Assembly: GCA_028873925.1 (NCBI GenBank)
Contig: JAPPNA010000162.1
Location: 2,345 to 66,344 of the forward strand
Source: Bacteroidota bacterium
Lineage (GTDB): Bacteria; Bacteroidota; Rhodothermia; Rhodothermales; Bin80
Direction of reading: 5' to 3'
DNA: 64,000 nucleotides
Made by a program: the position numbers and the translations under genes. Under the pieces are notes generated by a model that saw only the letters and a list, made by a program, of their open reading frames with translations, made no database searches and was not told where the DNA came from. This document shows positions 52,681-64,000 of the stretch, one piece after another. How positions within the stretch are numbered: the stretch's first letter is position 1; the number at the start of each line of letters is the position of its first letter.

Positions 52681-53829
52681 ATGACCGAGATAGATCTCCG
52701 GTCGGATTCTCCACGCTCCAAGGATCACCTCAAAATTATTTTTGATGTGGACGACCGGGGGAAGGCGCGGTATTTTCATGGCCGCCAAACTGTGATTGAG
52801 TCATTTGACAGACTGCGTCGCAGCGCAAGTGAGCGAGGAAATGGGACAATCTTTGTCGTCCAGGGCGCGCCCGGTGCAGGCAAAACGGCGTTACTGCATG
52901 TTCTCAAGGCGCGGGCTCGGAAGGACAGGTGGCGTGTAGGGACGATTAATCCAAGTGCGCTGGGTGATCCGGTGGAGATGGCCGACAGCCTTGGGGTTAG
53001 GCTCAAGAGACACATCCGCAGCCATATTGAAGGAGGATTCCAGGGTGTGAAGGCTGGACTGACAAGTACCCGACCCGCGAAGGAATCCGTACGTCATGTT
53101 CTTAAGTCGGCATCACGATTTAAGCGTGGAGTGCTCCTGGTGCTTGATGAGGCACAGACCATCGCTTGGGAAGCGGAGCAGCGCACGGTCCTTTACACGC
53201 TGAATTCCATCCTCAATGGTGAATGGAATCGACCGGCGATCTTGTTGGCTGGTGGGCTCAGTACCACCCGCCAGGCTTTTCAAACGTTGGGGATTTCCCG
53301 GCTGCGGGGAGACTGCCTCGTCAATCTGGCCCGGCTGAATGCAGACGCTGAAAGGGCTGTAATCCGAGATTGGCTGGTCAAGGCAGGCCGGGCCAAGGGG
53401 GAAGTTGCGGAATGGATTGACGCTATTGCCAGCGAAACCGATGGCTGGCCGCAACACATTGTCAGTTTTGCCGAGCCCGCCAGTCAGTTACTGAGGGCTA
53501 CCAATGGGGTTCTAACAGCGCAAGGGCTTAGCGCCGTGATATCAGAAGGTGTGCGGCGCAAGAACCAATACTATTATGGCCGCATGGACGGGGTGTCACG
53601 CAAGAACCGCACTGCTCTGGCTGGCTTTCTCCGTGGAAGGCCGCCCGATGCGGCCTTCACCCGGGATGAGGTATGGTCAGTCCTGGAAAGTGCGAATCCG
53701 CCAGAAGAGGTCGTGATGATGTTTGAGGCATTCTTAAGGAAAGGCATACTTGCGTGGACTCGCGACGCTGACTTAGCAGTGCCTATCCCTTCAATGCGAA
53801 GGTGGTTGGTCAGCACCTACGGCCCGTAG
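52681..53829 (+). CDS. Standalone AAA/STAND-like ATPase
   Basis: FHGR, GAPGAGKT, LVLDEAQ, DGWPQH (GxP-like), C-terminal wHTH-like IPSMRRWL. Confidence 0.85.
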   Translation: MTEIDLRSDSPRSKDHLKIIFDVDDRGKARYFHGRQTVIESFDRLRRSASERGNGTIFVVQGAPGAGKTALLHVLKARARKDRWRVGTINPSALGDPVEMADSLGVRLKRHIRSHIEGGFQGVKAGLTSTRPAKESVRHVLKSASRFKRGVLLVLDEAQTIAWEAEQRTVLYTLNSILNGEWNRPAILLAGGLSTTRQAFQTLGISRLRGDCLVNLARLNADAERAVIRDWLVKAGRAKGEVAEWIDAIASETDGWPQHIVSFAEPASQLLRATNGVLTAQGLSAVISEGVRRKNQYYYGRMDGVSRKNRTALAGFLRGRPPDAAFTRDEVWSVLESANPPEEVVMMFEAFLRKGILAWTRDADLAVPIPSMRRWLVSTYGP

Positions 53830-54105
53830 CTGCCGGTGCGTAGCCCACTGCGGACGCATTTGGCTCCTTATCCGCGATGATTCGCACCCTTCGGAGTCCT
53901 TCTCGGAGTTCTGCGCCGCCGGTGCCGGGGCCTGGCGAAACTGGCTGCGCAGAGCCCGTCAATGTCGTCATCAGGTCAGCTCTGACTGGCGGGCAGCGAC
54001 AACTGAACGGGGGCTTGAGGCCGCTAAGTCCAAAACGCCCGCGCAGACCAGGAACCCGCCGTTGGACTGCTGCATGTACCCCACCTTTTAAGCAGTTGAG
54101 GAACC

Positions 54106-54309
54106 ATGAAATCACCGGATCTAGGCAAGAGGGACTCAGAGGCTGGCAGGAGGGACATCGCACTCCTGAAAAAGCTGGCTGAAGGTGGCCGCAAGATGAC
54201 ACCGGCGGACTACCGGGCGCAACGCAGATCGTATGCGCTCACGGCTGCGACGACATCTGAAGAAAGGGGAATGTTGGCGAAACATTATGATAGCATCCAT
54301 GGCGATTAG
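54106..54309 (+). CDS. Small hypothetical protein upstream of Fic
   Basis: 67 aa, RBS GAGG, KMTPADYRAQRRSYA; stops 3 bp before the Fic start. Confidence 0.6.
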   Translation: MKSPDLGKRDSEAGRRDIALLKKLAEGGRKMTPADYRAQRRSYALTAATTSEERGMLAKHYDSIHGD

Positions 54310-54312
54310 TCC

Positions 54313-54901
54313 ATGATCGTTCATGAGCTTGCAGGCGGTGCACGAAAGTCATGCGGCCTATAGAAAATTAGATGCAGAGAATCGGTTAAGGCAGCTCGAT
54401 CGATTGACATCTCTCGTCAATGCAGCCATCCAGATCTCGTTTCTGTCGCAAACTGAAATCAAGGCTCTGAATTTCCACGCCATCGGATGACGGCATGCGC
54501 ATGCGGGCCAGTATCGGCCTGTTGATGTACGTGTCGGCGAACACATGCCGCCTCAGCATTTCCGGGTCGCGTCGCTCATGTATGACATGGTTAACCGCGT
54601 CAATCGCCGTTGGACCGAATTCAGCCCGATGAGTATGGCTGCATACGTGTTGTGGCGGACCATTTGGATCCATCCGTTTGTCAACGGCAACGGCAGGACT
54701 GCCAGAACCGCGTGTTACTTTGTCATCTGCTTGCACGCAGGATTCTGAGTAAGCGGCGATCCTGTTCTACCGGTGCGTTTGAAGGGACACCCCGAGTACA
54801 TTCCCGCTCTCAAAACAGCTGACCGAACCGGGGATCTGCTGCCGTTGGAAATGCTTATTGGTCGTCTATTGATCGAGCAGGCAGGCATCCCATCAGAGTA
54901 G
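54313..54901 (+). pseudogene. Fic-domain protein pseudogene
   Basis: HPFVNGNGRTAR motif and AGQYRP. Frameshift near 54340; in-frame TGA at 54488 and 54746; terminal TAG at 54899-54901. Confidence 0.85.
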
Positions 54902-55755
54902 AATTACCCAAGGCTATCTGCACCGAACCTGTCGGTGCCTGGGCGGGTTCTTGCGCCACCATCCCGCAATTCTTGCGTTTTTCCGGTCGTGGGAAAGGCA
55001 GAACTGGCTACGGGCTCCGGACAGCAAGAATCGCATAGACCCTCGTGCAGAATTCGGAGTCCGGTTCTATCGGCGAATCACTGACGGATGGTGGGGACGA
55101 TATTCGCCAGGTGGGTGCCAGAAGGCAGTTTGGAGCAAGTCAGGACAGGATGGCTGGCCCGGCTGCTACCCGATTGCAGTCTGCAGGAGTGATGGCCACA
55201 TACGAGAGGGCCTGGATCGGCGGATCGGAATAGTCGTCATGACCGTAGTACCTTGGTGGCGCGCCTCGCTGGCTGTTCAGTCGGTGTCGATCACCCAGCA
55301 GCTCGGGCAACCGGGACTACAACGCCCAAAGTGTGGTACATATTGGAGGCTGCGTTTCCGTGGCGGTAATCCAATCGGCAGGGTTGTCAAAATTGAGCAG
55401 AAATTGTGTGGAACCCTCCGACCAAAACGCGGATGTCGCATAAGCGCAGCATCAACGAATTCGCCCTTCTGGACGCGTCATGTACTTGATGATCACCGGC
55501 TGTGCACAGGAAGGAACCTTACCCATATGACCCGCATCGGATTCAACGCTGCCTGAGCGGCCCTTGCGGTCCAGTGGATACCCGGCGTGGATCTGGGCTC
55601 AGAACCCGCACAATTCTTACGATTTATTGTAGATTATGCCCGGTTGAATGGCCCCGAACATGATCTTGCTGGAGCATATTAAGGCCGAAAGCTACCGTGT
55701 CTGCTTGACTGCCGCCGGGCACTACGAGCGTGGCATCACCGGCTCCATCGGGTAA

Positions 55756-58700
55756 ATGGACGTATTCGCCTTCCGTAAGAAACTGGTTGAAGAGTACGGG
55801 CGCTTCACGCGATCGTTCTGCGAGATCCGTGCCGAGGACATTAAGAAATTTGTGGACGAAAAATATGCGGCGGAGAATTTTTGGCCCTCGCCCATCATTC
55901 AGCTCAACCCCAACTTCAAGTCAGGGGGCAGGGTGGACGCGCTGGTGGGAGAGGGCCTGCTTGAGCCTCCATGTGCGGAGATCTTCGCGGAGGCCGGCGA
56001 GCCTTATACACTTTACCAGCATCAGGTTGCGGCCATCAAGGTAGCGCAGAGTGGGGGCAGTTATGTGCTTACCACCGGCACCGGCTCAGGCAAGTCGTTG
56101 GCGTACTTTATCCCAATCGTAAATGATGTGCTTCGCAGGAAACGGGAGCAATCAGGTGGCCCACAAACCACGGCCATTGTTGTTTATCCGATGAATGCCC
56201 TCTGCAACAGCCAATTGGAAGAGCTGGAGCGATTCTTCGGCAAGTGTGATAAGGACCACACGCCACCTGTGACCTTTGCGCGGTACACAGGACAGGACCC
56301 GGATGACCACAAAGACTGGGTAGCGGCAAACCCTCCAGACATTCTGCTAACCAACTATGTCATGCTGGAACTCATCATGACCAGGTTCCTGCCGAATGAC
56401 AAGCGTATTCGGCACCACGCCCAGGGCCTGCGCTTTCTGGTGTTGGATGAGCTGCATATCTATCGAGGACGACAGGGAGCGGATGTGGCCATGCTGGTCC
56501 GGCGCGTGCGGGAGCGCTTCAATATGGACCTACAATGCGTGGGGACATCCGCCACGATGTCATCCGGTGAAGAGAGGCCTGCGGAACGCAATAGGGTTGT
56601 TGCAAACGTAGCATCGCGGCTGTTCGGCTCCACCGTTAAGCCGGAGCATGTGATAACCGAAACCCTTACTTCGGTCACGGAAAGGTCCAGCGTTCCGACG
56701 GGAGCAGCACTGAAGGCATTGATTGAGAGGAGCATACCCGCGGTAGTGTCCTACAACAGGTTGAAGCGAGACCCGTTTACGGCTTGGGTGGAGTGGACGC
56801 TAGGGTTAGAAATCGTTGATGGTAAACTGATTCGCGTATCACGCCCGCTCTCGGTTAACGCGGCTGCGGTAAAGCTCTCGGAATCTACTGGACTTAGAGT
56901 TGATACCTGCATGCAGTACCTGCGCGAATATCTGCTGAGAGCATCCCGTTCGCAGAATGAGCGTGGTCGCAACCTGTTTGCTTTTCGGCTGCACCAGTTC
57001 ATCAGCGGAGCATGGAGCGTGTTCACTTCGCTGGAGCCACCAGGGGATCGCCACCTTACCCTTTCTGGACAGCGATTTGTGCCTGATGATGGCGAGCGGA
57101 AGCGCAGATTGTTTCCACTATGCTTCTGCAGGGAGTGCGGACAGGAGTATATCCCGGTGTGGGCCACCAAAGAAGGCCAGCGGATCGAGTCCCTTGATCC
57201 TCGGGACCTTACTGAGCGTTCCAACGATGATGAGACCATTCAGTCAGGCTTTCTGCTATTGGACCCCGAACGAGTGTTCCGGGCGGATGTAGTCGAGGGA
57301 AACTACCCGGAGGACTGGGTTGAGATATTCCATGGCGCTTGGCGACTCAAGAATTACTACCGCAAATACCGCCCCATCGCCATTCATGTAGATACCCTTG
57401 GTGGGGCAGATGAATCAGGGACTCCCGGCTGGTATATCCCCGGTCCGTTCCGATTCTGCCTTAACGGTGAGTGTGGTGCCGTGTATTCCGGGCATGTGCG
57501 AAGTGATCTTTCTAAGCTTTCAAGCCTTTCGGGCGAAGGCCGCAGCTCAGCCACGACGATACTAACGCTATCTGTTCTTAAGCGGCTGATCGAGGGGGAT
57601 CTGGATGATGAGGCGAAGAAGCTCTTGGCCTTTACCGATAACCGTCAGGATGCCAGCCTGCAGGCCGGGCATTTCAACGACTTCATCCAGGTGCTACTGC
57701 TGCGGAGCGCCCTCATAGCGGCCGTAAAACAATCCCCAAGCCAATCACTCTCGGACGAAACCATTGCTCTGGGTGTCCTTAATCAGCTCCGACTGACCAA
57801 CGATCAGTTCGCTGCTAATACTCAGCTTCGGGGCCCGGCGCGAGAACGAACGCGCCAGACTCTGTTGAATGTGCTTGGGTACCGGATTTACAGAGATCTG
57901 GAACGCGGGTGGCGCATCAACAACCCCAATCTTGAGCAGCTGGGCCTACTTGGCATCCGATACCTGGGGCTGAAAGCCTGTTGCAGCGATGAAGAGGTGT
58001 GGGGCGAAGGGCCAGAGCTCCTGACGAGTGCAACTGCTGCAAACCGTGAGAATATTGCGCATGACCTATTGGAGCGGATGCGACGGGCCCTGTGCATCAA
58101 GACAATCTACCTTGACCGTAATCGCATTGAGAGACTGCGCAACCAGAGTTATAACGACTTAAAGGAGCCTTGGGGGCTTTCAGAGGGCGAGAATGTTTGG
58201 GGGGCCAGAACTATGGTGCCGGAATCAAGACGGGGCAGGGGGCCGAGCGACCATATGTATCTGTCCAGTCGGTCCGAGTTCGGACGCAAGCTTAATGCGG
58301 ATGATCGCTGGGGGGAAGATAATCCGTACTTCACCGGCAACCTCAGCAAGGACGAGTACAGCCAGGTGATCAACGCCTTGCTAACCGCGTTGGGACGGTA
58401 CGGCCTGATTGAAGTGGTACCGCTGGCCAACAGACAGTCAGGGTATCAGATCAACAGCAGCGTGATGGAGTGGCACCTACCATCGAACGAGGATGCCCAA
58501 CGGTCCAACCTGTTCTTCCGCAGACTTTATCGGGACACAGCGAATCTCTTGTCTGACAACAACAATTTCCTCCATCGGATTGCCGCCAGAGAGCATACGG
58601 CTCAGGTTGAGTCCGAGGATAGAGAAGAACGTGAGAAACGATTCCGGCAGGGCCTCAAGAAGGACGGACTGCCGGTGCTTTATTGCTCACCAACCATGGA

Positions 58701-60963
58701 ATTGGGTGTGGATATCGCCACGCTCAATACGGTGTATATGCGGAATGTGCCACCGACCCCGGCCAATTATGTCCAGCGCGGTGGCCGGGCCGGCCGAAGT
58801 GGTCAGCCTGCCCTGGTGGTTACCTACTGTGCCGCCAGATCGCCGCACGATCAATATTTCTTTCAGGATCCTCGGCGCATGGTGTCGGGGGAGGTGAATC
58901 CGCCATCCATTGATCTGGCCAATGAGGAGCTCATCCGCAGCCATTTGCATGCGGTGTGGCTCGCGGAGACGGGCGTTAGGCTGGACTCAACTGTAAAGGA
59001 TTTACTTGACCTGGAGGATAACCAACAACCCGTGTATCAGGAACTCCATGCACAGTTGGATCGAAGCCTTGTGCGCGAACAGGCGATGCTGCGGTCAGGC
59101 AGGATTCTTGAGACCATCCACAGCGATCTTACGACGACAGCCGCCCCGTGGTATTCAAATGACTGGGTCAATTCCGCAGTACAGACTGCCTGGAGGCGCT
59201 TTGACACGTCGTTTGAGCGCTGGCGGTCACTTTATCGGGCCACGACGACACAAATGGATGTAGCCAACAGGGTAATTGGCAATCCTGCGGCAAATGCAAC
59301 CGATCGTGATCGAGCCAAGAACCAGCACGACGAAGCTTTCCGGCAGCAGAAGCTCCTGCTTTCTGCAACTGATCGAAGGCAGTCAGATTTTGCAACATAT
59401 CGCTATTTGGCGGCGCAGGGATTCCTCCCAGGGTATAACTTTCCACGACTGCCACTTATGGCTTTCATCCCCGGCAGCAGACTCACCGGATCAAGACAGT
59501 CCGTGCTGAACAGACCGAGATTTATTGGGTTGGCGGAGTTTGGCCCCCAGTCATTCATCTACCATGAGGGGAATACGTTCCGCGTAGCGAAGGCCATGTT
59601 ATCCATTGATGAGGTGGCAGACGCGTCTTCCAGAAGGATGCTCCCTGTTCGAGAGGTTGCCATTTGCTCAAGGTGCGGGTACGGACATTTTGGAGCGGAG
59701 AAAGACAGCGAGTGCTGCGTGCGGTGCGAAGGTCGCCTGACGGATGCTCGAATAATTTCAAATCTATTCAGAATTGAGCAGGTGTCCACCCGGCGGGTGA
59801 ATCGAATCACCTCTGACGCTGAAGAGCGACAGCGTCAGGGCTACGAAATGATCACGACCTACAAATTTGCGACCAAGGATGGCACGCCTCTAGTGGACTC
59901 CTTCCAGTATGTGGTGGATGGCGAGGTTTTGATTGAGTTGGAATTCGGGCCGACAGCCACTCTCTGGAGAGTAAATCTCGGCTGGCGCCGACGGCGGGCA
60001 AAAACCATCTATGGTTTCAATGTGGATCCCAACACGGGCATATGGGCGAAAAATGAGCAGGCACCGACTGATGCGGAAGATGATCGGATAGAGAATACCG
60101 CCTACACTGAGCGCATTACCCCGTATGTCCAAGACACCAAGAATGTGCTGATCATCAAACCCTCGCCCGAACTGGACGACACGGCCGTTACAACCCTGCA
60201 GTACGCGTTTAAGCGCGGCATAGAGAAGGTTTATCAACTGGAGAATTCCGAGTTAGCCGCGGAGCCGCTGCCGGATGCCTCTAATCGCAGGGCTATCCTG
60301 CTGTATGAGGCCTCAGAGGGAGGGGCTGGTGTTCTGAATCGTATTGCCCGTGATGCCAGCGCGCTCGGGCGCGTGGCCCGGGCGGCACTTGAAATTTGCC
60401 ACTACGAGGCTCAAGCAGACCGGTGGAGCAGCCACAAGGCACTTACAGATCAGTTGAAGAACTGCGAGGCAGGATGTTACAAATGCCTCCTGAGCTATTA
60501 CAACCAATTGGATCACGACAGGATTGACCGGAAACACGAGGCGGTCATAGCCATCCTGTGCCAGCTAACAGCCGCCAAGCAGGAACGCACCCGTCACATA
60601 GAGATCCGTTCGCCATCACTTGACGCGCTGATTGAGCGCTGCGATTCCGATTTAGAAAGGGACTGGCTCCGATTCCTCTCAGACAACGATTATGTGCTGC
60701 CTGATCGTGCCCAGCCGCTGTTGAAAGGATACAAGACGCGCCCAGACTTCCAATATTTTGACCATCAAGTCATTGTGTACGTAGATGGCATTCATCATTT
60801 TGGCGAGCAAAAAAGGAAGAAAGACGCAGAGATCAGGGCCTCGCTTGCGGCTGCGGGGTATACCGTCATATCGTTTGCGCACCGGAAAAAAGATTGGCCC
60901 AAGACCATAGATCGGTTTGCTTGGGTATTCAGGCCCTCAAGTGTATGTGCCTTACATGGGTAA
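55756..60963 (+). CDS. YprA/DUF1998-type SF2 helicase with Zn motifs and C-terminal DUF559/Vsr-like nuclease domain
   Basis: LYQHQ, TGTGSGKS, YPMNAL, DELH, TSAT, TMELGVDI, QRGGRAGR; DUF1998-like EASEGGAG...CEAGCYKCLLSYYNQ; tail DSDLER...RPDF...VYVDGIHH. Confidence 0.92.
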   Translation: MDVFAFRKKLVEEYGRFTRSFCEIRAEDIKKFVDEKYAAENFWPSPIIQLNPNFKSGGRVDALVGEGLLEPPCAEIFAEAGEPYTLYQHQVAAIKVAQSGGSYVLTTGTGSGKSLAYFIPIVNDVLRRKREQSGGPQTTAIVVYPMNALCNSQLEELERFFGKCDKDHTPPVTFARYTGQDPDDHKDWVAANPPDILLTNYVMLELIMTRFLPNDKRIRHHAQGLRFLVLDELHIYRGRQGADVAMLVRRVRERFNMDLQCVGTSATMSSGEERPAERNRVVANVASRLFGSTVKPEHVITETLTSVTERSSVPTGAALKALIERSIPAVVSYNRLKRDPFTAWVEWTLGLEIVDGKLIRVSRPLSVNAAAVKLSESTGLRVDTCMQYLREYLLRASRSQNERGRNLFAFRLHQFISGAWSVFTSLEPPGDRHLTLSGQRFVPDDGERKRRLFPLCFCRECGQEYIPVWATKEGQRIESLDPRDLTERSNDDETIQSGFLLLDPERVFRADVVEGNYPEDWVEIFHGAWRLKNYYRKYRPIAIHVDTLGGADESGTPGWYIPGPFRFCLNGECGAVYSGHVRSDLSKLSSLSGEGRSSATTILTLSVLKRLIEGDLDDEAKKLLAFTDNRQDASLQAGHFNDFIQVLLLRSALIAAVKQSPSQSLSDETIALGVLNQLRLTNDQFAANTQLRGPARERTRQTLLNVLGYRIYRDLERGWRINNPNLEQLGLLGIRYLGLKACCSDEEVWGEGPELLTSATAANRENIAHDLLERMRRALCIKTIYLDRNRIERLRNQSYNDLKEPWGLSEGENVWGARTMVPESRRGRGPSDHMYLSSRSEFGRKLNADDRWGEDNPYFTGNLSKDEYSQVINALLTALGRYGLIEVVPLANRQSGYQINSSVMEWHLPSNEDAQRSNLFFRRLYRDTANLLSDNNNFLHRIAAREHTAQVESEDREEREKRFRQGLKKDGLPVLYCSPTMELGVDIATLNTVYMRNVPPTPANYVQRGGRAGRSGQPALVVTYCAARSPHDQYFFQDPRRMVSGEVNPPSIDLANEELIRSHLHAVWLAETGVRLDSTVKDLLDLEDNQQPVYQELHAQLDRSLVREQAMLRSGRILETIHSDLTTTAAPWYSNDWVNSAVQTAWRRFDTSFERWRSLYRATTTQMDVANRVIGNPAANATDRDRAKNQHDEAFRQQKLLLSATDRRQSDFATYRYLAAQGFLPGYNFPRLPLMAFIPGSRLTGSRQSVLNRPRFIGLAEFGPQSFIYHEGNTFRVAKAMLSIDEVADASSRRMLPVREVAICSRCGYGHFGAEKDSECCVRCEGRLTDARIISNLFRIEQVSTRRVNRITSDAEERQRQGYEMITTYKFATKDGTPLVDSFQYVVDGEVLIELEFGPTATLWRVNLGWRRRRAKTIYGFNVDPNTGIWAKNEQAPTDAEDDRIENTAYTERITPYVQDTKNVLIIKPSPELDDTAVTTLQYAFKRGIEKVYQLENSELAAEPLPDASNRRAILLYEASEGGAGVLNRIARDASALGRVARAALEICHYEAQADRWSSHKALTDQLKNCEAGCYKCLLSYYNQLDHDRIDRKHEAVIAILCQLTAAKQERTRHIEIRSPSLDALIERCDSDLERDWLRFLSDNDYVLPDRAQPLLKGYKTRPDFQYFDHQVIVYVDGIHHFGEQKRKKDAEIRASLAAAGYTVISFAHRKKDWPKTIDRFAWVFRPSSVCALHG

Positions 60964-63817
60964 GGCACTCGCGTATAGACCGGGAGATCTGGTGCGTGCT
61001 CGAGGGCGGGAATGGGTCGTGCTACCGGAGTTGCGGCCGAATTTGCTCAAACTGCGCCCGATGGGTGGGACCGACAGAGATTCCACGCTCATATACCTGC
61101 CGCTTGAACCCGAGCCTCCCAAGCCCGCCACATTCAGCTTGCCGGACCCCAATCAGTCTGGTACGCTGGAGGCCACTTGGCTCCTGATGACCGCCTGCCG
61201 CCTGAAGCTCCGCGCCGGGGCTGGGCCTTTCAGGAGCTTTGGGCATCTGAATTTTGAACCGCGTGCTTATCAGCTGGTCCCGTTAATGATGGCGCTCAGG
61301 ATGGATACCATCCGGCTCTTGATTGCTGACGATGTCGGAATTGGCAAGACGATAGAGGCGGGCCTGATTGCCCGCGAGCTGCTGGATCGCGGTGAAATTA
61401 CTAAGTCAGCGGTAATCTGCCCGCCCCATTTGTGTGACCAGTGGCAGCAGGAATTGGAGACAAAGTTCAGCATTCAGGCAGACATTGTCAGCGCCGGAAC
61501 GGCGCGTCGGCTGGAGCGGAATGTGCCCGCTGGGGAGTCCATTTTTGAAGTTTACGATCATACGGTCGTATCGCTGGATTACATCAAATCGAATCGTCGC
61601 CGGGACGAATTTGCGCGAGTCTGTCCTGACTTTGTGATCGTCGATGAGGCACATACGTGCGTTCGCGCCTACGATGGCTCCCGGCATCAGCGCCACGAGC
61701 TATTGATCAAACTGGTAGAATCCGAACGCGGACGCCACTTAATATTGCTTACTGCTACGCCCCATTCGGGAAACGATCGGGCCTTTCACAATTTGCTGGG
61801 ACTGCTGGACAGTCGGTTTGAGGAACTCCAAGATCTGAACACACAGCCGGAGCGAATTCACCTTCGTGAAGAGCTGAGTGCTCATTTTGTCCAAAGGCGC
61901 CGGGGCGATATCGCTGAATGGAACGATTCAGCTCAATTCCCAGTGCGCGAGAGTCGGGAAGCAACCTACCGGCTGACCGGTCAATGGGGACAGCTCTTTT
62001 GGGATGTTCTCAAGTATGCTCGCACTATGGTGGCAGGGGCGGCATCTGGGACACATTTGGAGCAACGGATGTCATGGTGGGCTGCGTTGGCCCTAATGCG
62101 CTGTATTTCGTCAAGTCCAGCAGCGGCTTCGATGGCACTTAGAACCCGAATGGAGGCTGTAGAAGGTCGCGCTGCTGCTGAAACACTTGAAAAGTTGGAA
62201 CAGACGGCAGTAGCAAGGGTCATGGATATGGAGGAGGACGACTTCGTAACCGCCAATGAATTGGTACCCGCAGGAACAATTGAGTCTGAGGGTGCCAGCA
62301 CCCAACTTAGCCAGCTCATTGCTACGGCTGATTCCCTGCGAGGCCCCAGGACGGATCCGAAACTAAAGCTCCTGATCAGGCAGGTCCGGGAATTAATCAG
62401 AGATGGATTCCGCCCTGTGATCTTCTGCCGCTATATCGCTACCGCCCATTACGTGGGAGAGAATCTTGAACGCGTGCTGCCCGCAGCCGGCACCCGGGTT
62501 GAAGTGATCACCGGAGAACTAACGCCGCAGGAGCGTGAAGCGCGCGTGGAGACATTTGGTGACTTGGACCCAGATGTAACGCCCGTCTTGGTAGCCACGG
62601 ACTGTCTGTCCGAGGGAATCAACCTGCAGAATTACTTTGACGCGGTGATCCATTATGCCTTAACCTGGAATCCCACTCGGCATGAACAGCGCGAAGGTCG
62701 CGTTGACCGGTTCGGACAGATGAACCGCACCGTGCGAACTGTAATGATCTACGGCCAAGACAATCCGGTGGACGGTGCCGTGCTTCGCGTGATTCTGCGC
62801 AAGGCTAAGCAGATTCGTAAGGAATTGGGTGTAGCTATTCCAATACCCAGTGACAATAGCGCGGTTGTGGAGGCCATCATGAAGACCGTATTGCTCCGGG
62901 CGGGCAGTACGCAGCAGGACCAGAAAGAACTGGATTTTGGAGAGGTTGAATCGGAATTGGATGCGGGATGGGAACGAGCCAGCACCAAGATCAGCCGAAC
63001 GATTTTTGCCCAGCGCAAGCTGCGACCGAAAGAAGTGCTCAATGAGTGGCGAAAGGTCGTGGACATCTTGGGCGGACCGGAAGACGTAAAGCGTTTGCTT
63101 CATGTCACGGCGAGACAATTGGGCACACCAATGCAGGGTCACAAGGGCACCTTAAGGCTGCCCACCGTGCATCTACCTCCTTCACTGCGCGAGCAGCTCA
63201 CAGCCATCGGCGTGACGGAAAATACCCGGATTGCTGCTGAAATGCCCGTACCGGCAGGCTGCATTCATGTACATCGGGCTCACCCGCTTGTAGCGATTCT
63301 GGCCGACTATGTGACAGAGCAGGGCCTGGAGGCGGATGGTGACTTTGTGCGTGCAAGATCAACGGCGATTTTCACGTCCGATGTCAGTGTGCTCACTTAT
63401 CTGTTTCTGCTGCGTCTGCGTTGCCATATCCATGTCAGAAAACAGGCAGGGAGTCAAGCACACATGTCCCACAAACAGTTGCTGGCGGAAGAATGCCTCA
63501 CAATGGTTCATGAATCCGGCAATAAGTCCGCGCAAGTGCTAAGTGCATTGGAGGTCCAAGAATTCATGCGGATAACGCCGAGTCGCAACATGCATAGTGG
63601 CCAAAAATCTCTGCATATTAGGCAGGCACTTGACTGGTATCGGAACAATGGGCAAATTCTCAAGAGAATCGCGCAAGGGCGGGGCCAAGAGCTCTTGCAG
63701 GACCACCGCCGAGTCCGAACGGCAAGTGGGATAAAAGGGATCATGTACGAGGTGGAGCCAGCGTTTCCGATGGATGTGATTGGCATAGCCGTGCTGGTTC
63801 CGGTCACTACCGACTGA
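60956..63817 (+). CDS. SNF2-family helicase (DrmD-like)
   Basis: PGDLVRARGREW, LLIADDVGIGKT, DEAH, LTATPHSG, SEGINLQ, WNPTRHEQREGRVDR. 8-bp overlap with the upstream helicase gene. Confidence 0.92.
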   Translation: MGKALAYRPGDLVRARGREWVVLPELRPNLLKLRPMGGTDRDSTLIYLPLEPEPPKPATFSLPDPNQSGTLEATWLLMTACRLKLRAGAGPFRSFGHLNFEPRAYQLVPLMMALRMDTIRLLIADDVGIGKTIEAGLIARELLDRGEITKSAVICPPHLCDQWQQELETKFSIQADIVSAGTARRLERNVPAGESIFEVYDHTVVSLDYIKSNRRRDEFARVCPDFVIVDEAHTCVRAYDGSRHQRHELLIKLVESERGRHLILLTATPHSGNDRAFHNLLGLLDSRFEELQDLNTQPERIHLREELSAHFVQRRRGDIAEWNDSAQFPVRESREATYRLTGQWGQLFWDVLKYARTMVAGAASGTHLEQRMSWWAALALMRCISSSPAAASMALRTRMEAVEGRAAAETLEKLEQTAVARVMDMEEDDFVTANELVPAGTIESEGASTQLSQLIATADSLRGPRTDPKLKLLIRQVRELIRDGFRPVIFCRYIATAHYVGENLERVLPAAGTRVEVITGELTPQEREARVETFGDLDPDVTPVLVATDCLSEGINLQNYFDAVIHYALTWNPTRHEQREGRVDRFGQMNRTVRTVMIYGQDNPVDGAVLRVILRKAKQIRKELGVAIPIPSDNSAVVEAIMKTVLLRAGSTQQDQKELDFGEVESELDAGWERASTKISRTIFAQRKLRPKEVLNEWRKVVDILGGPEDVKRLLHVTARQLGTPMQGHKGTLRLPTVHLPPSLREQLTAIGVTENTRIAAEMPVPAGCIHVHRAHPLVAILADYVTEQGLEADGDFVRARSTAIFTSDVSVLTYLFLLRLRCHIHVRKQAGSQAHMSHKQLLAEECLTMVHESGNKSAQVLSALEVQEFMRITPSRNMHSGQKSLHIRQALDWYRNNGQILKRIAQGRGQELLQDHRRVRTASGIKGIMYEVEPAFPMDVIGIAVLVPVTTD

Positions 63818-64000
63818 TTTATGCCAGCGATGCAACGGGCGACCATGACAGGCCGCAACGAAGGCCCAAGGAAACCTGCTACGGCGGAATTGAGAAAAGC
63901 AGAGGCGGCTGGTCCTGCCACATGAGGGATCAGACATTGGCAACAGAAGTTCCGCAGCGATTAGAATCGTCGGCTGCGGGATGGCTGAGCAGCAGGTGCG

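Follow-up and report, generated by a model that had tools for sequence, protein, structure and literature searches.

A probable ARMADA Type I locus with a candidate repeat switch in its methylase in a Bacteroidota bacterium

Two overlapping genes were analyzed in a stretch of 64,000 nucleotides (nt) of DNA from a Bacteroidota bacterium (hereafter the window; assembly GCA_028873925.1, contig JAPPNA010000162.1, positions 2,345 to 66,344 of the forward strand, labeled G000:C182 in our own contig set). The pair very probably supplies the helicases of an ARMADA Type I anti-phage system, which is composed of an ArmC-like YprA helicase, an ArmA-like SNF2 helicase, and then a PglX/DrmMI-like N6-adenine methyltransferase (methylase). 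The locus is not a new system but a further copy of the catalogued ARMADA Type I, and it was found in an apparently disabled state, with an insertion sequence (IS) separating the methylase from the helicases and with a shortened methylase frame. As a system it therefore adds nothing new, and the parts worth following are its IS-split state and a simple repeat tract in the methylase, which looks, at the sequence level, like a phase-variable switch. Public runs containing this DNA were mostly labeled as sponge metagenome (two studies), in addition to one coded organism.

The helicase gene pair and its relation to ARMADA

An initial annotation, made from the window alone, had described two intact genes with an 8-bp overlap, and this was confirmed by the open reading frames (ORFs) at 55756-60963 and 60956-63817, both on the forward strand. 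Gene 1 (55756-60963) is an uninterrupted ORF whose translation of 1735 amino acids (aa) is an ArmC-like YprA-family helicase-nuclease. Pfam domains and the translation agreed with its earlier description as a superfamily 2 helicase that joins two cysteine motifs, a DUF1998 region, and a nuclease-like tail in one chain. The RecA1 lobe (56017-56565, residues 88-270; DEAD, Pfam PF00270, 3.3e-25) carries the Walker A motif GTGSGKS and a DELH box, and the RecA2 lobe (58543-58803, residues 930-1016; Helicase_C, Pfam PF00271, 1e-11) carries motif VI as QRGGRAGR. The lobes are separated by an insert of about 660 aa that includes the motifs CRECG (residues 458-462) and CLNGEC (residues 568-573), which together span 57127-57474. 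These are followed by an MZB/DUF1998 zinc-binding domain (60196-60489, residues 1481-1578; Pfam PF09369, 2.6e-10, 41.3 bits against a cut-off of 24.2) and by the core of a Vsr/DUF559-type PD-(D/E)xK nuclease (60745-60882, residues 1664-1709; Pfam DUF559, 23.0 bits against a cut-off of 20.6).

The Walker A and DELH motifs were invariant across 13 aligned homologues, as were C458, C461, C568, and C573 in 13 full-length homologues, and the cysteines of the insert were also invariant in a second alignment (A3, covering the gene 1 insert). In the nuclease tail, D1664, D1677, G1678, H1680, H1681, and D1690 were invariant in 13 homologues, with the pattern repeated in 18 C-termini, and a comparison of the tail to structure 3hrl gave a weak profile match (E 0.29). 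Of 8000 scored candidates, 6945 had a match to gene 1 with E<=0.001; the top 120 were 1732-1778 aa in length, with a query coverage of 99-100%. The existence of thousands of full-length homologues of similar length indicates that neither gene is a chance ORF.

Gene 2 (60956-63817) encodes a protein of 953 aa, an ArmA-like SNF2 helicase related to RapA, BrxHII, and DrmD, which agrees with the SNF2 assignment of the initial annotation and includes the Pfam domains SNF2-rel_dom and Helicase_C. Its reading frame is open from 60917, with an ATG at 60956 that gives the 8-bp overlap with the stop codon of gene 1 (60961-60963). The best solved relative of the protein is RapA.

According to Bell et al. 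(2025; bioRxiv 10.1101/2025.09.15.676423, PMC12458937), ARMADA Type I has the order of a YprA-like helicase, a BrxHII/RapA-like helicase, and a PglX-like methylase, and its YprA homologue carries a C-terminal fused Vsr-type nuclease that is predicted to be active. The same arrangement was found here. Gene 1 includes the DEAD, Helicase_C, and MZB domains within one chain, shares with Type I the fused OB-CON-DUF1998 part, and ends in the Vsr-type nuclease, for which the DUF559 score was above the Pfam cut-off. A BrxHII/RapA-like SNF2 gene directly follows the YprA gene, and a PglX-like methyltransferase gene comes after the SNF2 gene, on contig C141 and outside the window. Two features differ from Type I as described: an IS66 element and a 635-nt spacer are present between gene 2 and the methylase, and the methylase includes a repeat tract with three frame outcomes.

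Gene 1 also grouped with catalogued Type I helicases rather than with those of Type II or Druantia, both in the published table and in a phylogeny. In Table S1 of the same study (PMC12458937), where at least 5,428 rows are assigned to ARMADA Type I, proteins on the contigs VXYT01000111.1, CP042425.1, and BAAARY010000023.1 are listed as "ARMADA Type I helicase". These correspond to our related loci L002, L051, and L068, matched by contig and not by protein accession, and their helicases share a full-length identity to gene 1 of 56%, 43%, and 39%, respectively. The initial annotation had noted that ARMADA might cover this layout, which the 56% identical relative in L002 bears out. Its proposal of a distinct new system, in turn, falls, as the system is catalogued. 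In a FastTree phylogeny of 63 proteins, gene 1 was placed in a supported clade of 27 rows, with E. coli ArmC and DruE as long-branch outgroups. E. coli ArmC (Type II) and DruE had an identity of 22-34% to gene 1, in local pieces only. The ARMADA YprA proteins are described as closest to those of Druantia (Bell et al., 2025; PMC12458937), and the finding of DruE (structure 9tu7) as the nearest solved structure of gene 1 fits this closeness.

ARMADA Type II, represented by armABCD of E. coli, has homologous SNF2, methylase, and YprA components, and in the text consulted from two studies it is the sole ARMADA type with experimental proof of defense (Bell et al., 2025, PMC12458937; mBio, 2026, PMC13463889). 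In contrast to the locus described here, where the YprA gene comes first, its genes are arranged as ArmA-ArmB-ArmC-ArmD and include an additional RelE-GajB helicase, and its ArmC is a protein of 2113 aa with extra nuclease-like domains, compared to the 1735 aa of gene 1. The identity of Type II proteins was 23-34% to gene 1, in pieces, and 25% for the SNF2 helicase. No UvrD-like gene was found beside the pair in the ORF list or among the Pfam domains of its neighbors, so the Type II layout is absent. In E. coli O157 Sakai, Druantia III adjoins ARMADA II, with the order of SNF2, methylase, YprA, and UvrD-like genes. A second YprA-like gene occurs elsewhere in the genome studied here: it encodes 1982 aa with matches to DruE models and is followed by a GajB-like UvrD helicase of 717 aa at a contig end. 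This gene pair (G000:C163 3939-12037, reverse strand) is ARMADA Type II-like.

The order of the genes was examined among 80 related loci with full-length gene 1 homologues of 39-56% identity. A gene 2 homologue was located downstream on the same strand in 62 of the 80 loci. Many of the other 18 appear to end inside or just after gene 1. Of the 53 loci with a full-length gene 2, 38 have an ORF of at least 1000 aa beginning no more than 25 nt from its stop, and all five of the downstream ORFs that were scanned contained the Eco57I and N6_Mtase domains. Nine of the 62 loci have an insert of 0.8-2.1 kb between the two helicase genes. Extra genes at this position included a GmrSD-type restriction enzyme (L011:5670-7577, L032:15430-17388, and L046:9281-11245) and a UvrD-like helicase (L043:7823-9892 and L055:12207-14279). 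In the actinobacterial loci L076 (22055-24739), L069, and L071, an ORF of about 890 aa follows the methylase; the one scanned, in L076, contained Mrr_N and AAA_5 (McrB-like) domains.

The methylase on a second contig and alternative readings

The initial annotation had predicted an adenine methyltransferase gene past the window edge and proposed to look for it in the next kilobases. That search found nothing on the same contig, as C182 ends 616 nt after gene 2 and these 616 nt include no methylase ORF, but the gene itself was recovered from contig C141. A whole-assembly search with the methylase of related locus L004 identified it at G000:C141 13458-16907 on the reverse strand, 53% identical to the query and 262 nt from the contig end. 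The protein contains Eco57I/N6_Mtase domains with DPACGSG and NPPW motifs and matched the PADLOC DrmMI model at 8e-67. It is 50-53% identical to methylases that directly follow gene 2 homologues, a level that equals that of genes 1 and 2. Much lower identities, of 31-40% in pieces, were seen for the genome's three other PglX-like genes, located on contigs C29, C33, and C93.

A shared target duplication links the two contigs. The ends of C182 and C141 both lie in multi-copy repeats. The terminus of C182 carries an inverted repeat beginning with GTAAGCG, whose right-end counterpart opens the reverse complement of C141. IS66 elements typically have GTAAGCG termini and 8-bp duplications. The two IS ends, at C182 66725-66777 and C141 16988-17169 (contig coordinates), have terminal repeats that agree at 18 of 40 positions, clustered in the first 17 nt, and the 8 nt flanking each of them are identical (ATTCGGAC). 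An 8-mer of its own was likewise shared by each of two further contig-end pairs, which shows that the pairing method works. The same IS left end is where at least five further contig ends break off, and a diverged copy of the right end was found on C100, after a remnant with the Pfam domain IS66_C. No exact overlap was found between the end of C182 and the start of any contig, and the body of the IS is absent from the assembly. From these sequence comparisons, we conclude that one IS66-family element separates gene 2 from the methylase, lying 563 nt behind the former and 72 nt ahead of the start of the latter, and that the assembly broke there because of this insertion. The 563-nt spacer begins at 63818 and occupies the rest of the window (63818-64000); it reaches the IS66-family left end at C182 66725, 381 nt beyond the window, and included no Rfam family and an 81-aa ORF without a Pfam family. 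In two runs of related strains, X4 and X9, the sequence upstream of the methylase diverges at C141 16956 and 16977, and these loose ends matched other multi-copy repeats of the genome instead of gene 2. The gap between gene 2 and the methylase may thus have been hit repeatedly by mobile elements.

Several observations weigh against the assignment to ARMADA Type I. The evidence for joining C182 and C141 consists of the 8-bp duplication that they share and of their gene content, and no contig of four public runs bridges the IS. The methylase of the relatives starts right after gene 2, in contrast to the 635-nt spacer found here. The top PADLOC names were "DpdE" for gene 2 and "DruE" for gene 1, in a release (PADLOC 2.0) that predates ARMADA. 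The BrxA-like/beta-barrel/MarR-like insert that marks the ARMADA/Druantia lineage is backed in gene 1 by a weak, colinear profile match of its insert to the large "Helicase" chain 9wae (E 0.005). Finally, the ARMADA experiments in the text consulted from both studies concern Type II only (PMC12458937; PMC13463889).

Among the alternatives, the least improbable is a self-contained system of two helicases without a methyltransferase, which would be new and would leave the C141 methylase to belong elsewhere. The 616 nt after gene 2 without a methylase ORF are consistent with it, as are five related loci (L011, L028, L058, L059, and L062) that have no long ORF right after gene 2. However, a tblastn search identified methylase-like sequence in L011, L028, L058, and L059, leaving L062 as the only locus without it; in L058 this sequence lies 85 nt into the locus, upstream of its gene 1. 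Together with the target duplication shared by C182 and C141, and with the closer relation of the C141 methylase to post-gene-2 methylases than is seen for the other three PglX-like genes, this makes a system of two helicases alone very improbable.

A Druantia-type system, with gene 1 as its DruE, is less credible again. The PADLOC DruE models gave the best matches to gene 1 (1e-94), and structure 9tu7, which was confirmed as E. coli DruE and is likewise a large YprA-family helicase-nuclease, was its best solved relative (1.2e-45). The DruE matches were nevertheless piecewise, in two to five stretches with an identity of 22-32%. In addition, no DruH-like partner of the kind that accompanies DruE in Druantia III was present among the neighbors scanned, the partners here being an SNF2 helicase and a methylase, and the tail of gene 1 is a DUF559/Vsr-type nuclease with no PLD-type domain detected by Pfam.

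Equally hard to sustain is a variant of the Dpd (7-deazaguanine) system or of DISARM class I. Here the PADLOC "DpdE" model PDLC02853 matched gene 2 end to end (3e-200), followed by DrmD (3e-86) and BrxHI|BrxHII (1e-58), and gene 1 matched DpdJ (1.5e-24) and DrmA (9e-14) after DruE. DISARM class I (DrmA, DrmB, DrmC, DrmD, and DrmMI) thus resembles the present locus in its SNF2 partner, its DrmMI-like methylase, and its methylation-linked logic. In contrast to DISARM, the helicase and DUF1998 form one chain here instead of a separate DrmB, a PLD-type DrmC is missing, and the DrmA models match the RecA2 region only. None of the seven neighboring ORFs scanned encoded DpdA-K, another 7-deazaguanine protein, DrmB, or a PLD protein, and the NCBIfam scores were all below their cut-offs (336 against 610 for DrmD, 180 against 500 for DpdE, and 76 against 800 for DpdJ), indicating that the pair is not DISARM, Dpd, or Druantia in the strict sense. 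The initial annotation had likewise placed the pair in a DISARM-related, methylation-linked defense that is neither DISARM class I nor Druantia, and the ARMADA Type I order and domain content support that part of it.

Least probable of all is a housekeeping pair of DNA-repair helicases of the MrfA/YprA branch without a defense role, for which MrfA/YprA (6znp) as a solved relative of gene 1 (3.9e-20) would speak, against a patchy distribution (long matches to gene 1 were found for 8 of 24 genomes belonging to this family, but for 0 of 16 from the order's other families), an identity near 55% across at least eight phyla, the linked methylase, the nuclease tail, and a GC content of 0.54-0.57 at the locus compared to 0.57-0.63 upstream.

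A repeat tract in the methylase

The ARMADA Type I methylase on C141 is interrupted by a change of frame. Its ORF stops at 1149 aa and is overlapped, in another frame, by the next ORF (293 aa), whose counterpart in distant relatives is the C-terminal portion of their single-ORF methylases. The frame changes at a poly-C(10) tract (C141 13616-13625), which is located right after a conserved peptide ending ...ILPRYWVSEGEVLHKM (hereafter the anchor) and just upstream of a C-terminal module that resembles a target recognition domain (TRD). In the nearest relative, P0125, the methylase is one ORF of 1402 aa that reads through into the module, with an identity of 79% over the 550 C-terminal residues searched. 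A contig of run X9 has an additional 10 nt exactly at the position of the tract, by which the long frame would, arithmetically, come into phase; run X4, in which no contig covers the tract, did not enter this comparison. The TRD-like nature of the module is suggested by PADLOC, which also aligned it to the C-terminus of a Type IIG model, and by a wider VIA search with a model of the module, which gave matches to methylase recognition domains, while no hit at E<=0.001 came from a Foldseek search of the PDB with this model.

Simple repeats at this site were a property of one clade. Within 90 nt of the anchor, 21 of the 23 close-clade loci that could be assessed had a simple repeat, its unit being 1, 4, 5, 7, or 8 nt long (checked with TRF); a 24th locus, which ends 25 nt after the anchor, was left out of the count. 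In contrast, no repeat was found at the anchor site in any of 16 distant loci, nor was a repeat tract present in E. coli armB. The repeat types were diverse and included C or G in 9-43 copies; AGGC, AGCC, ACCG, CGAC, and CAAC in 14-54 copies, with about 100 copies of ACCG in a two-block tract in L009; GCCGA/AGCCG, GAGCA, and TCACC in 13-50 copies; ACCGAGA in 31 copies; and CGCCGAAC in six copies. Examples of such tracts are at L018:21485-21648 and near 21430-21700 in L029, L019, and L016. The repeat-bearing methylases follow a single clade of the YprA tree, with two changes compared to a mean of 12 after shuffling, and this clade spans at least eight phyla.

Closely related loci differed at the tract and around it. 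The tracts of L009 and L012 share a unit and have lengths of 398 and 79 nt, whereas L002 and L007 differ in the unit itself (AGGC and AGCC). In both pairs, the 600-nt flanks of the tract are only 79-93% identical, and the YprA proteins are almost identical (end branches of 0.01-0.03 changes per column in the tree). This divergence of the flanks despite near-equal YprA proteins suggests that the methylase evolves faster than the helicases.

Downstream of the tract, three frames with distinct outcomes were observed. The long frame continues for 290-315 codons into the C-terminal module; the short frame continues for 51-101 codons, through a conserved copy of the first motif of the module, before a stop; and the off frame ends 17-45 codons after the tract. 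Of the 19 loci for which the phase of the upstream frame was assessable, four were in the long state, five in the short state, and ten in the off state, with further damage in three loci. The methylase studied here belongs to the short group, as its frame ends 51 codons after the tract. A test of codon positions in the short frame gave values of 0.82, 0.77, and 1.09 for positions 1, 2, and 3, respectively, compared to 0.95, 0.58, and 1.51 for the control; the excess at the third position is mild and is suggestive but not decisive. Among the best 120 database homologues of the methylase, 34 had at least 250 aa after the anchor motif and 86 had fewer. The former number is close to the one third expected with random frames, although length alone is no proof of cause in a given case. 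Peptide repeats after the anchor occurred in 62 of the 120 homologues, with a period of 1-8 aa, most often 5 or 7, which is what translated repeats would give.

We consider it reasonably likely that, in a subclade of ARMADA Type I that crosses phyla and includes this bacterium, the methylase is controlled by a hypermutable repeat before the TRD-like module, acting as a switch with three states. In the long state the core would be fused to the module, in the short state the core would carry only a conserved 35-aa copy of the first motif of the module, and in the third state the methylase would be off. A point against this interpretation is that the tract states were read from assemblies and contigs, which can miscount repeats. 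Across the whole assembly, 71 long tracts (homopolymers of at least 9 nt, or other units totaling at least 24 nt) were counted; the 60 listed were all homopolymers, mostly poly-G or poly-C, some of them at contig ends and possibly sequencing artifacts.

Comparable switches are known from other defense methylases. The G-tract of pglX in the Pgl system of Streptomyces coelicolor is reportedly phase-variable, and in the "phasevarions" of Type III mod genes, a repeat in the ORF of the defense methylase sets the reading frame by its length. The present tract shares with both that a simple repeat within the ORF of a defense methylase would set the frame. In contrast, the repeats described here are built from units of 1-8 nt and reach about 100 copies, they occur at one fixed linker before the TRD-like module, they are found in uncultured bacteria of at least eight phyla, and a duplicated TRD-start motif gives rise to long, short, and off products. 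If the interpretation is correct, populations could toggle or re-tune their helicase-nuclease defense, similar to the phasevarions of host-adapted pathogens, which offers a testable idea of how a costly methylation-linked defense may be switched on and off in uncultured symbionts. A warning for annotation also comes with the tract, as these methylases will be broken up or cut short by gene callers. Term searches found no mention of phase variation, frameshifts, or repeat tracts in the main text of Bell et al. (2025; PMC12458937) and none of phase variation in the mBio paper on ARMADA (PMC13463889), and among the papers listed by full-text literature searches none was on this methylase switch.

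Predicted function, present state, and neighboring genes

The catalytic motifs are intact in all three genes, including the core of the methylase. Judging from the respective protein families, the methylase would mark host DNA at its recognition motif, and unmarked incoming DNA would be engaged by the SNF2 and YprA motors and cut by the Vsr-type nuclease tail of gene 1. By analogy with Type II, the resulting immunity may be direct and non-abortive. In E. coli, Type II provides direct, non-abortive immunity that depends on every gene of the system as well as on the Walker and NPPW motifs (PMC12458937; PMC13463889), and it probably targets unmodified DNA, according to the discussion of the mBio paper (PMC13463889).

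In the genome studied here, the system is probably switched off or altered, because the methylase is truncated before the recognition-like module and an IS lies between it and the rest of the operon. As the methylase is needed for Type II defense, its loss should silence the system and not cause self-attack. A change of the tract by +1 or -2 nt could restore the system, provided that the methylase is still transcribed behind the IS.

Two upstream ORFs are located between sugar-transport genes and gene 1. The ORF at 52681-53829 encodes a 382-aa AAA/STAND-like ATPase, for which AAA_22 and AAA_16 were the only domains above the Pfam cut-offs, and the ORF at 54951-55556 encodes 201 aa without a family. 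Neither had a tblastn match in the wider set of 88 related loci, and both were rejected as members of the system, as they are absent beside the systems of the relatives. No tRNA genes were found in the window, and promoter-like and terminator-like sites did not occur above shuffled expectation. The segment at 53984-55117, just upstream of gene 1, overlaps small ORFs without a family and recurs on contig C28 (83% identical) and, in part, on C45.

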